Positions 1 to 5,071 of a stretch of 5,758 nucleotides of DNA are shown here, one piece after another; position 1 is the stretch's first letter, and each line of letters opens with the position of its first letter. Position numbers: made by a program. The stretch lies in IMG/VR virus record IMGVR_UViG_2778261708_000019; one strand, 5' to 3'. The stretch comes from a virus (taxonomy: Duplodnaviria > Heunggongvirae > Uroviricota > Caudoviricetes).

Positions 1-3000
1 CATCCTGACTTTCCAGAACCATACGAATCGCCCGCTGACGGACTTCGGGGGAAAAACGAGTATTTTTAGTCATCCTGTTTACCTCTTTCTCAGGGAGTTT
101 AGTCTCCAGGATTTCCGGGGCGGTTCATTCCTTAACTCAAAATGGCAATGATAGCCATATAACTTCTCTCCTCTACGGAGGAGGCCCAGCATTAACTAAT
201 TCAGCTGGAGTACCCTGGACTGCAGCTTATGTTGATACTATTGGCGAAGTCACGGCCGATCTTCGTTCAAATATTGCAGCTGAAGCTCGGGCAAAGATCA
301 TTTACGAACGTCTCATTAATGTTACTGATGATCCTGGAGTAAAAGACACTCTGGCATTTTTAATGACCCGGGAAGCAGCACACATGCTTTCATTTGAAAA
401 AGCATTACATTCAATTCGTAACACCTTTCCACCAGGAAAATTACCACCACTTGAGAAATACAAAAACGTATATTACAACATGTCAGAAGGTGAAGACGTC
501 AGAGGTAGTTGGAACAGTGATGAAAACTTTGACTATGTTTCCGATCCAGTTTCAGCGGTTGACGGTGGGGATGGGAAGGCCTCGATAAATCTTTCGACCA
601 AGCAAGAAGCTATGATAAAAGCTATGGCAACAAGGTTGAAATCCCATGAAGACATCAATCCTGTCACTGGCGCTGAGCTTGCTGAAGGAGAACCACAAAC
701 AAAGATAAATAGTAAAAACTAATTATCTTCTGGTATTTAGCTATCCCTCATAAGTTAATTGCCGCTGAGATATCCTAAGCTCTAGCCTCTGAAAATACAT
801 TTATATTTCGAAGCCCGCGATATTTTAAGCGGGCTTTTATTTTAAACTTCAGGTATTACAGGCCACTCAATATCAGGTGCAGTTGATGTATCAACACGGT
901 TCAGCAACACCCGATACTTTTTCCAGGCTTCCAGCAATGAGGTTTCTTCCTCCGTTGCGATTTCCAGATCTACAGCATCCTGAAGTGGCGCAATATGCTC
1001 ACTGGCTACCTGCATCAGGCTGTTTTTTGTTTCTTCCGCCTCCCGGATCCGGAACAGTTTTTCTGCTTCTGCATCTTTCACCCAGGCTGTGCCGTTCCAC
1101 TTCTGAAACTCCCCTTCCGGCGATAACCAGGTAACATTTTCCGGTAATGAGCCGAGTTCAGAAATAAATAACGCGTCGCCGGAAGCCACGTCATAAACCG
1201 TTTTACCCCGATGATCTTCAACGAGATGCCACGATGACTCATCACTGTTGAAAACAGCCACGAAGCCAGCCGGAATATCTGGCGGTGCAATATAGGTACT
1301 GTTTGCTGGCAGACCTGTATGAGGCGGAATATATGCGTCACCTTCACCAATAAATTCATTAGTTCCGGTCAGCAGATTATAAATTTTTATGGTCCGTGGT
1401 TGTTCACTCATTCTGAATGCCATTATGCAAGCCTCACAATGTAGTTAAATGCGATGTTTTTGACAGTGTTTTCCGCGTTACCCGCAGCGTTAACGGTGAT
1501 GGTGTGTCCATGTGAGCCAATCGCAACAGAGTGCGTATGAGCACCAATACCGACAGTATGTGCGTGAGCACCTGCAGATGCAGCTGTGCCGCTGACACTA
1601 TGAGTGTGCGCTCCTGCAGCACTTGTATTCACACTGGCCGCAGACACTACCTTATGTACTGACCCATTTTGTGACCACTGGCTGACTGCTGATGCGCCTG
1701 TGACACTATGAGTATGGTTTCCGGCACTTGCGGCTGTACCGCTCACACTGTGCGTGTGCGCCCCGGTGTTATTCGTGGATTTAGTGCCGTAATCAAACGA
1801 CGATGTGGTTTTCGTCCCCAAATCCGTACTGGATGCGCTGGCGCTGTGGGTGTGCGATTTAATGCCGTCCTGTTCCTGAGACAATACGGCCCGACCACTG
1901 GCAGGTTTGCCCTTAATCGTCCAGCCACGCATATCAGGGATCACGCCTGACGGATAAGCGGCTGCAAGTTTCGGGTATGCAGATTTGTCAAAAGTCTGCC
2001 CCTGCATCAGGGCATAGCCAGACGGAACGGTATCTGATGGCCACGGGATTGGTGCGCCAGGCGGATAAAACTGCTCTGATGGCGTATAGAGTGAATAAAC
2101 TGTACCGTCCGTTAACCCTTCCGGCTTATTAGCAGAATATGCTGGTGACGTATGAATCGTCACGCTGGCATTACTGGTATAATCCCATTGAATATTTACA
2201 CCAGTCGCATAATTTCCGATTGCAACGTAAATATCGTAAGTATCACCAGATGTATTGACCCAGGCAAAATTTGTAAACCCTGTCGATGTGCGCTGCCATA
2301 AAGCACCAGTAATCCCCTTCGGATTACCATTACCTGCACGCAAAACAAGTTCAGATATACCTGCCTGTTGAGGTGACCCCACGTTAAATCCCGCGCCACC
2401 AATCAACGTAATTGAAACAACAGAACTCGCCTGTGGCATGGTTACCGTTGCTAATTTGAACCAACCAGCACCACCGCTGAATGACATTGTTGTTGAGTTA
2501 AGCGTACCAATATCTTTCGGCGTCAGTGTTATATCCGATGAAAGCGCCTTACCATTCACCTTACGGGCAGAAGGTACCCGACCATTCGCATTATCATTAG
2601 CTGCTTTCACTGCTTTCGGTGTCGCGGCAAGCGTTTCAGATGCGCTGTTGGTTGCACTACTGAGCTGGACAATTCCTTTTTGTGCTGTCGTAGCGTCCTG
2701 AGCAGTATATTTCCCGTTAGCAAGGTCATAGGCTGCCTTTACCGACTTTGGCGTTGCCGCCAGCATTTCAGATGTGCTGTTGGTCGCGTTGCTAAGCTGA
2801 ACTATCCCTTTCTGTGCTGTCGTTGCATCCTGTGCGGTGTATTTCCCGTTAGCCAGCTCATACGCGGCCTTAACGGCTTTTGGCGTTGCCGCCAGTGACT
2901 CGGAAGTGCTGTTAGTCGCACTGCTGAGCTGTACTATCCCCTTTTTCGTCGTGCTCGCATCCTCAAGCGCCACGGCGGATGCAATATCCTCTGCCCGTTT

Positions 3001-5071
3001 TGCCGCTGTCTCAGCGCGCGTTGCTGCAGATTCCGCCGTACTTTTGCTCTGAGCTGCTGCCGTCGCACTACCAGCTGCCTCTGTCGCCTTCGTGGATGCC
3101 GTCGTGGCGCTGCTCTTCGCTGCTGACGCTTGTCTGGTCGCCTCATCTTTTGAAGCAGACGCAGATGATGCCGATGACGCCGCCGAACTGGCTGACGATG
3201 CGGCAGCCGTTTTTGAGGATTCTGCGCTGGTTTCCGACGCTTTCGCGTTCGTTTCGGATGTCTTCGCTGCGGAAGCAGAACTCGCTGCTGCGCTGGCCTG
3301 TTCAGTGGCTTCGCCAGCCTTCGTTGTGGCTGTTGAAGCAGACGATGCGGCACTTTCTGCCGATTTTCCGGCGGCGGTGGCACTGGCTGAGGCCTGCCCG
3401 GCACTTGTTGACGCGGCACTGGCAGATAATGCAGCCGCTGTTTTTGAGCCTGCTGCTGCGGAGGCACTCTGTTCTGCTGCCGTTTCAGAGGACTTAGCGT
3501 TTGTCTCAGACGTTTTGGCCGCCTTCGCGGAATTGCCTGCCGCCGTTGCCGAGGAGGCTGCACTACTGGCGCTCGAGGCTGCGCTCGTTTCTGATGATTT
3601 TGCCGCCTCTTTTGAAGCCGACGCATCCCTGGCTGAGGAGGCAGCTTCTGACGCTTTCGTGGTCGCGGTGGATGCAGAAGTGGCGGCTGATTGTTGTGAC
3701 ACTGCCGCATTCGTTTCTGACGTTTTCGCCGCACCGGCACTGGTAGCCGCCGCGCTTTTTGAGGACTCTGCAGCGGCAGCACTTTTTGATGCTTCAGTAG
3801 CCTTTGTTGATGCCGTTCCTGCGCTGGAAGACGCTGACTGAGCCGACGACGCGGCCTGTCCGGCTGACGTGCTGGCTGCGCGTGCTGAGTCCGCAGCATC
3901 AGTCGCATGGGTTGCCGCCTCACGGGCTGATGTGCTGGCATCGCTGGCTGACTTCTTCGCGGCTGCCGTGTTCTGTGCCACCGCGGACGCGTTACGCGCC
4001 ACCTCTTCCACCATCAGCTCAAAACGGCGCAGTGCCTCCGGACGGACATCATCCTCAGTCATGGCACCAAGAAAATCATTCAGCGTACCGGGTTGAGAAT
4101 CTTCATACACGGTGATGGTCCCGGCATGTGACGGCGGGAACCCTTCCACCAACAGAATAACGCTGTACTGACCGTACTCAACGTCCATGCTGTAACGCCC
4201 GGCTTCATCCGGATTTTCTGAGGCCAGCGTGTTCACCACCACCGTGGTACTGTTACGTTTTGCTTTCAGCTGGATTGTGCAGTTCTGTACCGGTTTTCCT
4301 GTGCCGTCTTTCAGTACACCTGAAATCTTTACTGCCATATTCACCCCACAAAAAAGCCCGCCTGAACCGGCGGGCTGTCATAACACTGTGTTACCTAGCT
4401 AATCAGAATTTATAACCAACACCCACGATGAACCCGTCAGTGCGCCAGTCACCACTGCCAGAACCTTCATAAGCAATATCAATGGCCACGGATTCGGTCG
4501 GGTTAAACTGCACGCCAGCCCCCCACGCCAGAGACGTGTTGCTGTGGCGACCGTCATCACTTCCGGTCAGCACATCGTGCGTTTTCCCCTTGTTGTCAGT
4601 TACGCGAAGGTAATCCCCGGAAAAAGTCGAAACACGGCTGTAAGCCATACCCGCCATCGCATACGCGCTGAACCATTCATTCACGCGCACAGACGGCCCC
4701 GCCATCACGCTGAACCAGCGGTTACGCACGGAATCTTCATGCCAGCGGGTATCGCTGTAACGGGTCAGCTGGCGATTCTTGTCTCCTGCATAGCTGAATG
4801 ACGTCACCAGCCCCAGCGTATCCGTAAACTCATAACGGTATTTCACGTTAATCCCGTTCAGATCATCACTGCCGGGAACGTTGGTCCGGGCATGAAGATA
4901 CCCCGCGCTCAGCGTGGACTGATGTTCAGATGCCCATGCAGGCGCACCGGATACGGCCAGACAAATGGCTGCGGACAAAATGGCGGCATAAAGTTTACGC
5001 ATAATTACCTCTCGCTTTTCTGCAATAAAAAAGGCGTCATTTCTGACGCCCGTTCTGGGTTATAAAATTCA

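Follow-up and report, generated by a model that had tools for sequence, protein, structure and literature searches.

The open reading frame at positions 1423..4338 (minus strand) of the window, that is, of the whole 5,758-nucleotide stretch analyzed from IMG/VR record IMGVR_UViG_2778261708_000019, was identified as stf, which most likely encodes a lambda Stf-family side tail fibre of a lambda-like Escherichia coli O157:H7 prophage, working as in Ur-lambda (probability of about 0.9). According to this reading, four trimeric fibres would emerge from the Stf collar, each consisting of a long heptad coiled coil with an Ala/Ser core, followed by three 44-aa repeats and an all-beta module, and ending in a tip of the T4 gp37 type, with a collar and a needle held by seven His-x-His metal sites and a small head at the far end. 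Folding of the tip would be aided by the co-translated Tfa, whose gene directly follows stf. The head would engage an outer-membrane receptor in a reversible manner, as OmpC and/or LPS are bound in lambda and T4, and would thereby speed adsorption before J engages its essential receptor. Relative to lambda, the protein is mosaic: the exchanged cassette is the central module, which reaches from the fibre-repeat motif, a conserved one, to where the collar domain begins, and the receptor-binding fold is retained. Differences in specificity, if any, would sit in the approximately 30-aa head loops.

The stf locus and its neighbourhood

The stf gene starts with an ATG at position 4338 (an in-frame GTG lies two codons upstream, at 4344) and runs for 971 codons plus a stop codon, with no frameshift or internal stop, in contrast to laboratory lambda. 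Pfam domains were found in the order phage_tail_N, Phage_fiber_2 (three times), Collar and Phage_fiber, while an NCBIfam scan of Stf and Tfa matched no family. At the DNA level, the gene was 100% identical to the one for RefSeq entry WP_000279120.1 and to annotated O157:H7 genomes; the product is already in RefSeq and annotated as a prophage tail fibre. The locus was found in more than 500 E. coli genomes, most of them O157:H7.

The gene order J-lom-stf-tfa is of the lambda type, and the Pfam matches for the J C-terminus, Ail_Lom and Caudo_TAP follow one another as expected. Downstream of stf, the tail fibre assembly chaperone gene tfa (842..1423, minus strand; 193 aa; Caudo_TAP, PF02413, E = 3.4e-45) overlaps the stf stop codon with its start codon (TAATG), and its product is 92% identical to lambda Tfa. 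Upstream, as in lambda, stf adjoins lom (4403..5002, minus strand), an Ail/Lom outer-membrane protein gene (Ail_Lom, E = 5e-120) whose product shares 46% identity with lambda Lom. A consensus scan detected a terminator-like hairpin between both genes (4355..4376, minus strand), formed by an 8-bp stem with seven GC pairs followed by TTTTTGTGGG, the T-run ending just upstream of the stf start. A similar hairpin is present at the same position in lambda, differing in a few stem bases, and we infer that the one in the window acts as a terminator. No sigma-70 promoter was found in a scan of positions 600-5100; this is consistent with expression of stf by read-through of a late operon, yet it does not constitute evidence for read-through. 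IS elements were also observed near the locus, together with a second tfa that is truncated.

The window ends within J, the gene for the central tail fibre (tip attachment) protein, whose 3' end occupies positions 5069..5758 (minus strand; Ig_GpJ_C, E = 5e-37) and whose open frame extends to the window end. Of the last 218 aa of J, the first 60 or so were near-identical to lambda J, the remainder being strongly diverged, and this diverged C-terminus is at least as relevant for host range as Stf.

The intact appearance of stf could also be that of a relic in a defective prophage, persisting only because it is recent or recombines with co-resident lambdoid prophages, and without any current function in a virion; were the prophage defective, the fibre would never be assembled. 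O157:H7 genomes contain many places related to the window (median 6, up to 46 matches per genome), therefore giving ample scope for gene conversion, and the IS elements and tfa remnant near the locus fit the same reading. Against it stand the 971 codons uninterrupted by frameshift or stop, unlike laboratory lambda, the full tail module upstream of stf, annotated as intact in the O157:H7 genome NZ_CP018247, and the occurrence of the same N-terminal part and an identical tip in the plaque-forming isolates 2H10, PhiR29_1/2 and SPF_0923. A relic is thus considered unlikely.

Similarity to Ur-lambda Stf along the fibre

Ur-lambda Stf (orf-401 plus orf-314 of lambda PaPa; UniProt P03764) was reconstructed from J02459 by restoring the missing C. 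Comparisons were made by local BLAST without filtering rather than by full-protein tblastn, whose low-complexity filter hides the shaft and so understates the coverage of Stf. Identity to Ur-lambda Stf was 93% over aa 1-101, 83% over the shaft region aa 102-303, 77% over aa 412-503 (the end of the shaft and the first repeat, aligned with lambda 302-393) and 78.5% over the C-terminal 214 aa (758-971, aligned with lambda 530-774), leaving only aa ~591-757 without a counterpart. The preliminary description, which had limited the resemblance to the first ~115 residues, was therefore mistaken on this point. Both proteins share the order of Pfam domains, the position within J-lom-stf-tfa and one fibre repeat. 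They differ in length (971 aa in O157 Stf and 774 aa in lambda, that is, 197 aa more), in a shaft that is 15 heptads longer in O157 Stf, and in the number of fibre repeats, three versus one. Moreover, the lambda hinge and distal coiled coil (aa 394-529) are replaced in O157 Stf by an unrelated all-beta module; for lambda aa 394-525, no alignable similarity was obtained in O157 Stf. This region is not a strict requirement of the Stf family, since it is variable among accepted alleles and dispensable in engineered chimeras.

It had been proposed that only the anchor is lambda-like and that the whole distal fibre, including its receptor-binding end, was imported by exchange, conferring a host range unlike that of lambda. 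The greater length, the central region lacking a lambda counterpart, the absence of a uniform full-length match among phage records and a head subdomain unlike lambda's would all agree with such an origin. However, similarity to lambda runs through aa 303 and returns at aa 412-503 and 758-971, the Pfam architecture is that of lambda, shaft and tip both belong by homology to the lambda Stf/T4 gp37 family, and the accompanying Tfa is nearly that of lambda as well. The strong form of the proposal is ruled out by the similarity along Stf together with the shared architecture, and we regard wholesale import of the distal fibre as very improbable.

The lambda-like nature of the N-terminus was confirmed. 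Pfam phage_tail_N (PF08400) covered aa 1-134 over its full length (E = 4.4e-72), and aa 1-94 matched residues 1-94 of the Ur-lambda Stf collar chain (PDB 9E7M/9MGH; phmmer, E = 4e-52), delimiting a collar or anchor domain (aa 1-94; 4057..4338, minus strand) equivalent to gpStfN. In lambda, gpStfN is wrapped around the tail where gpV and gpM meet (PMC12617516), and the O157 domain would attach the fibre to the virion.

The region that follows (aa 102-459; 2962..4035, minus strand) is an Ala/Ser/Thr-rich shaft (36.5% Ala, 24% Ser, 11% Thr), defined by composition and lag-7 autocorrelation. Earlier considered a low-complexity segment, it is indeed rich in Ala and Ser, but it is more than that, as its heptad periodicity is unbroken (z = 10 versus shuffles). 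In the work dealing with lambda Stf architecture and OmpC binding, residues 102-393 of the lambda protein are described as a coiled coil (PMC12617516), and the O157 shaft is probably a trimeric coiled coil too.

Two lambda HSPs were offset by 315 nt within stf (blastn), which places an extra shaft segment of ~105 aa, or 15 heptads, at roughly aa 304-408 (3115-3429, minus strand). When this segment was compared with the rest of the shaft at the protein level, a score of 98 bits was obtained (maximum of 29 in shuffled controls), yet self-similarity at the DNA level was negligible. A recent internal duplication was therefore rejected as its source, and the segment is regarded as an old or convergent repetition of heptads.

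Fibre repeats, central module and mosaicism

The three tandem repeats previously noticed were recovered by three approaches at aa 460-591 (2566..2961, minus strand), with the tandem array placed at 2566-2977: TRF gave a period of 132 nt, equivalent to 44 aa, the repeat search found one family with three copies, and Pfam detected three Phage_fiber_2 (PF03406) stretches, compared with one in lambda Stf. The repeats also bore a faint similarity to Mu tail fibre S (PDB 5YVQ). They are followed by a central module of ~165 aa (aa ~592-755; 2074..2565, minus strand), predicted to be all-beta, for which lambda Stf has no counterpart.

Close alleles were found in the lambdoid phages 2H10 (LR595862) and PhiR29_2 (PV340557) and in Salmonella phage SPF_0923 (ON032529). 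DNA identity with these alleles was ~95% (96% at the amino acid level) over the first 1481-1620 nt of stf and 98-99% over the last ~640 nt, with tips sharing 99-100% amino acid identity and an identical head subdomain. The central cassette, in contrast, was distinct in each of them, resulting in total lengths of 1117 aa in 2H10, 966 aa in PhiR29_2 and 1008 aa in SPF_0923; the cassette of 2H10 contains a Gp34_trimer domain, and the number of fibre repeats varies among alleles. Upstream similarity ended at gene nt 1481 for 2H10 and PhiR29_2, nt 1620 for SPF_0923 and nt 1471 for lambda, junctions that coincide with the conserved GIVQLS..ATPKAVK motif of the fibre repeats, and similarity to the three phage alleles resumed at nt 2267-2281. 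The breakpoints that allele comparison had been expected to reveal were thus located, and they delimit the exchanged cassette as the middle of the fibre, from aa ~494/540 to ~756. The natural junctions with lambda, at approximately lambda aa 385-393 and aa 530, also coincide with R393 and S528, the fusion points with which functional lambda STF chimeras were built (PMC11338833).

Relatives of the central module (57-85% identical over aa ~590-757) were found in tail proteins of phi458, P1-like JL22, Cyrano, CMS-2020a, Mu-like Yersinia phages and ST64B, which depart from O157 Stf in their C-terminal ends, their N-terminal anchors or both; in phi458 the N-terminal 759 aa are all colinear with O157 Stf. 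Above 85% identity, the module was present in no phage record. Including relatives with 43-47% identity in some T-even gp37 proteins, the module is shuffled between the fibres of siphoviruses, myoviruses, P1-like phages and T-even phages. Since no phage record matched Stf uniformly over its full length, uniform similarity to one fibre, which would have spoken against the mosaic origin initially suggested, was not observed; with its swapped middle cassette, Stf is, as judged from these alignments, a case of textbook tail-fibre mosaicism, for which lambda Stf and T4 gp37 are the best-known example.

The central module was modelled with AlphaFold2 from a 27-sequence alignment. A search for its homologues yielded mainly short, incomplete proteins of draft genomes, which served for the alignment only. 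The model was of low confidence (pLDDT 58.8, pTM 0.61) and suggested a jelly-roll-like beta-sandwich weakly similar to modules that bind carbohydrate or collagen and to a tailspike-like enzyme's N-terminal domain, while the structural search performed with it returned no specific match. The module probably serves the fibre as a structural knob, a role that has to be taken as a guess given the low confidence of the model and the lack of a specific structural match. It might instead constitute a second, lateral binding module (aa ~592-755), directed for example to a surface glycan, so that the fibre would have two specificity determinants and cassette swapping would be driven by host range. That near-identical alleles differ only in their middle, that the module circulates among fibres of such different phages, and that its predicted fold and weak likenesses recall binding modules and tailspikes would all be in line with this possibility. 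Yet the fold comes from a low-confidence model, no binding motif was identified in the module, and the receptor contacts known for T4 and lambda are at the needle head (PMC6957217, PMC5221442), and a lateral binding role is considered unlikely.

The gp37-type tip and its head subdomain

The C-terminal region (aa 756-971; 1426..2073, minus strand) was recognized as a receptor-binding tip by its Pfam Collar and Phage_fiber matches and by phmmer against PDB 2XGF (T4 gp37 785-1026), with which it is colinear (E = 2.5e-88). The alignment with the T4 tip extends over 228 aa with a single 1-residue gap on each side and 68% identity; N-terminal of the tip, Stf is unrelated to T4 gp37, apart from the T-even relatives of the central module mentioned above. 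By this homology, the O157 tip belongs to the T4 gp37-type family, as lambda's does, while the chaperone differs, being of the lambda Tfa type in the O157 locus and gp38 in T4. The tip consists of a collar and a His-rich needle, which correspond to T4 D10 and D11, respectively. The collar (PF07484, aa 761-808, E = 6.6e-12) is split by the insertion of the needle. The His-rich end reported at the outset was verified: of the final 150 residues of Stf, 15 are His. Moreover, the seven HxH motifs of the tip (aa 829, 861, 875, 911, 925, 934 and 943; lambda Stf has eight) align one-to-one with T4 883, 915, 929, 966, 980, 989 and 998, which are the seven iron sites of T4, suggesting that the O157 needle would bind metal in the same way.

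With gp37 domain boundaries taken from PMC6957217, identity to T4 was 83% in the collar (T4 811-881), 70-75% in the stem, 13% in the head and 94% in the last 17 residues (T4 1010-1026). The head (tip) subdomain of the needle (aa 876-904; 1627..1713, minus strand) lies between the third and fourth HxH motifs and is equivalent to T4 gp37 930-959, occupying the same position with 29 aa instead of 30; only 4 of 30 residues are identical to T4, versus 70-94% in the flanking subdomains. The residues of T4 gp37 that contact the receptor (933-955) are located in the head of the needle (PMC6957217, PMC5221442), and all of them are substituted in Stf. With respect to lambda, the head has a different sequence and is 12 aa shorter. 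The head allele was 100% identical in five phage records and 84% identical in T-even phage vB_EcoM_G2285, with values of at most 61% elsewhere.

In the gp37/lambda tip family, divergence is centred on the specificity region (PMC9659904). On the present comparison, the head is likewise the hypervariable part of the needle, and its divergence corresponds to loop-level change within one fold and not to a replaced receptor-binding end. The tip may have a receptor specificity other than lambda's, since its ~30-aa head shows no sequence relationship to the heads of lambda and T4; as it shares almost nothing with either, binding of OmpC or LPS cannot be assumed. A literature search on the receptors of PhiR29 or mEp332 returned nothing relevant.

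Implications

The discovery value of this gene is small, as its product is an unremarkable side tail fibre that databases already list, with mosaicism of a known kind. Its practical value is modest: the breakpoints at the fibre-repeat motif and at the collar start match junctions used for lambda STF chimeras, and the allele, which combines a longer shaft, an alternative middle module and alternative head loops, is a candidate for STF chimera vectors. A more speculative and unlikely reading is that the central all-beta module constitutes a second binding unit in its own right (lectin-like, for instance) that passes between lambdoid, P1-like, Mu-like and T-even fibres and forms a two-site adsorption device together with the head-loop allele. 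If this were true, such a device would equip this prophage family with a specificity so far unreported for Stf proteins.

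Gene context of stf

The window carries on its minus strand the 3' end of J (5069-5758; Pfam Ig_GpJ_C, frame open to the window edge), lom (4403-5002; Pfam Ail_Lom, E 5e-120), the side tail fibre gene stf, a 971-codon ORF identified from ORF and translation (1423-4338), and tfa (842-1423; Pfam Caudo_TAP, E 3e-45), whose ATG overlaps the stf stop codon, while the 3' part of a manganese-catalase gene lies on the plus strand (1-722; Pfam and genome annotation). Genomes of E. coli, mostly O157:H7, matched the whole window at 100% identity, and matches spanning at least 80% of it were found in 539 genomes. 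The long ORF carries the annotation WP_000279120.1 ("prophage tail fiber N-terminal domain-containing protein") in strain 7784, where stf closes off a complete lambda-type head-tail module. The identical matches, the annotation and the module context together confirmed the stf coordinates of the preliminary description and excluded a chance ORF. An in-frame GTG occurs two codons upstream of the ATG (4338-4344, minus strand); the ATG (MAVKISG...) was retained as the correct start because the lambda Stf chain of PDB 9E7M has a matching N-terminus and RefSeq annotates the same start.

Other-frame ORFs of 335 aa (2934-3941, minus) and 249 aa (3092-3841, plus) across the shaft-coding region look like by-products of GC-rich Ala/Ser heptad coding; a comparable antisense "orf206b" is annotated within orf-401 in the lambda record J02459. 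Directly 3' of tfa, O157:H7 genomes hold cargo-like genes (locus L007, 10382-12595) for a general stress protein, two ferritin-like proteins and manganese catalase, beyond which lie a methyltransferase gene, a truncated second tfa and an ISEc8 element.

Homology to lambda Stf

The Stf of Ur-lambda (774 aa) was reconstructed from J02459, in which one missing C breaks the gene into orf-401 and orf-314, by adding that base back. Protein identity to it was 93% for Stf aa 1-101 (lambda 1-101), 83% for aa 102-303 (lambda 102-303), 77% for aa 412-503 (lambda 302-393) and 78.5% for aa 758-971 (lambda 530-774, with lambda 31 aa longer), and aa 591-757 could not be aligned with lambda 394-529. DNA HSPs, numbered from the gene start, covered nt 1-908 (lambda 1-908, 86%), 1214-1471 (lambda 899-1156, 79%), 2274-2559 (lambda 1590-1875, 87%) and 2767-2916 (lambda 2176-2325, 85%). 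About 610 of the 971 residues thus align at 77-93% identity, and the Pfam domains of lambda Stf come in the same order (phage_tail_N, Phage_fiber_2, Collar, Phage_fiber), so that the shaft as well as the His-rich tip has its homologue in lambda, contrary to the preliminary description, which had limited the resemblance to the first ~115 residues.

Otherwise, all four features of the architecture described earlier were recovered. The lambda-like N-terminus corresponds to phage_tail_N (aa 1-134, E 4e-72); the three tandem repeats to three 132-nt units at 2566-2977 (TRF and repeat search), encoding three 44-aa repeats (aa 460-591), with three Pfam Phage_fiber_2 repeats; and the His-rich end to 15 of the 18 histidines, concentrated in the last 150 residues. 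Pfam also placed a Collar domain at aa 761-808 and recognised the HxH "Phage_fiber" repeat. The shaft is indeed rich in Ala (36.5%), Ser (24%) and Thr (11%), but it is not merely of low complexity: its identity autocorrelation peaked at lags of 7, 14, 21 and so on (z ~8-10 against shuffles), with a heptad register unbroken across ~340 residues, the pattern that marks a long coiled coil whose core positions are filled by Ala/Ser. Compared with lambda, the shaft is longer by 315 nt, or 105 aa, which is exactly 15 heptads, and the register is therefore preserved. The extra stretch resembled the rest of the shaft in protein (98 bits; shuffle maximum 29) but showed no such similarity in DNA, and a recent duplication was accordingly ruled out as its origin.

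Exchange of the middle of the fibre

The closest sequenced phage alleles of stf were those of 2H10, PhiR29_2 and SPF_0923. Identity was ~95% in DNA and 96% in protein over nt 1-1481 (2H10 and PhiR29_2) or nt 1-1620 (SPF_0923), and from nt 2267-2281 to the end all three were 98-99% identical in DNA, with tips 99-100% identical in protein; between these stretches they were unrelated to the window gene, and the middle differed in each. Breakpoints were thus mapped at nt 1481-1620, within the conserved fibre-repeat motif GIVQLS...ATPKAVK, and at nt 2267-2281, where the collar domain begins. The joints with lambda coincided with these two (about lambda aa 385-393 and lambda aa 530), at the positions (R393 and S528) where engineered fusions have given functional lambda STF chimeras (PMC11338833). 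None of the phage records showed uniform full-length similarity to the window Stf. Mosaicism is therefore real, but the proposed replacement of the receptor-binding end by something unlike lambda's did not hold; the exchanged unit is instead the middle. This module (aa ~592-755) matched PHROGs 3299, 21552 and 6722, and its relatives (43-85% identity) were found in lambdoid phi458, in P1-like JL22, Cyrano and CMS-2020a, in Mu-like Yersinia phages, in ST64B-like Salmonella phages and in some T-even gp37 proteins.

The receptor-binding tip and its head

Residues 744-971 matched the receptor-binding tip of T4 gp37 as solved by crystallography (2XGF; E 2.5e-88, 68% identical) colinearly, with a single-residue gap on each side. 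T4 gp37 comprises a D10 collar (811-881 and 1010-1026) and a D11 needle (882-1009) (PMC6957217). Identity was 83% in the first part of the collar, 75% in the ascending stem, 70% in the descending stem and 94% in the last 17 residues, yet 13% (4/30) in the head (T4 930-959, Stf aa 876-904). The T4 residues that contact OmpC and LPS according to genetics and biochemistry (933-955; PMC6957217, PMC5221442) lie wholly inside this diverged segment. The tip thus follows what has been published on the "T4- and lambda-based RBP family", whose members are conserved over the last ~215 aa and diverge mainly around the specificity region (PMC9659904).

In T4, seven HxH motifs coordinate seven iron ions along the trimer axis (PMC6957217). 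Stf has seven (aa 829, 861, 875, 911, 925, 934 and 943), all at T4-equivalent positions (883, 915, 929, 966, 980, 989 and 998), and would presumably bind metal as a trimer; lambda Stf has eight. Tfa, the chaperone for this tip type, was 92% identical to that of lambda.

Five records of isolated phages (2H10, SPF_0923, PhiR29_1/2) had the head allele at 100% identity and the T-even phage vB_EcoM_G2285 had it at 84%; elsewhere, lambda and T4 included, identity was at most 61%, which marks it as a distinct, recurrent putative specificity allele. The match to vB_EcoM_G2285 lies in its gp37 tip and was measured over the head-containing segment (aa 850-923; 1570-1791, minus), with identity rising to 90% for the last 122 aa, a clear case of a tip allele that a virulent myovirus has in common with temperate siphoviruses.

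Implications for fibre function and host range

The homologous fibre of Ur-lambda (PMC12617516) serves as the model here: the N-terminal domain would be present in twelve copies, arranged as a collar at the virion's gpV/gpM junction and continued by flexible linkers into four trimeric coiled-coil fibres. The gp37-like distal tip would bind an outer-membrane receptor reversibly, OmpC in the case of lambda Stf, and speed adsorption before J takes the essential receptor (PMC12617516). A terminator-like hairpin just 5' of the stf start (4355-4376, minus strand) is conserved in lambda with a few stem bases different, so that stf expression would need antiterminated read-through. A second such hairpin (5032-5051, minus strand) lies on the other side of lom, giving a moron-like arrangement; the lom product was 46% identical to lambda Lom.

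The exact Stf protein is already in RefSeq, and the family, its relationship to gp37, the chaperone and modular exchange are long established and used in engineering (PMC12617516, PMC9659904, PMC11338833); to a specialist this fibre holds nothing surprising. As for the host or receptor range unlike lambda's that had been proposed, any change in Stf specificity would be confined to the head loops. In lambda the essential receptor determinant is J, not Stf (PMC12617516). Over the 218 aa compared, the C-terminus of J was 61% identical to lambda J, the first ~60 residues being near-identical and the last ~150 (5069-5520, minus) strongly diverged; a 19-nt tandem repeat (2.3 copies, 84% matches) is present in the J coding region at 5500-5542. 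The divergence of the J C-terminus probably matters more for the host and receptor range of this prophage than the differences in Stf.
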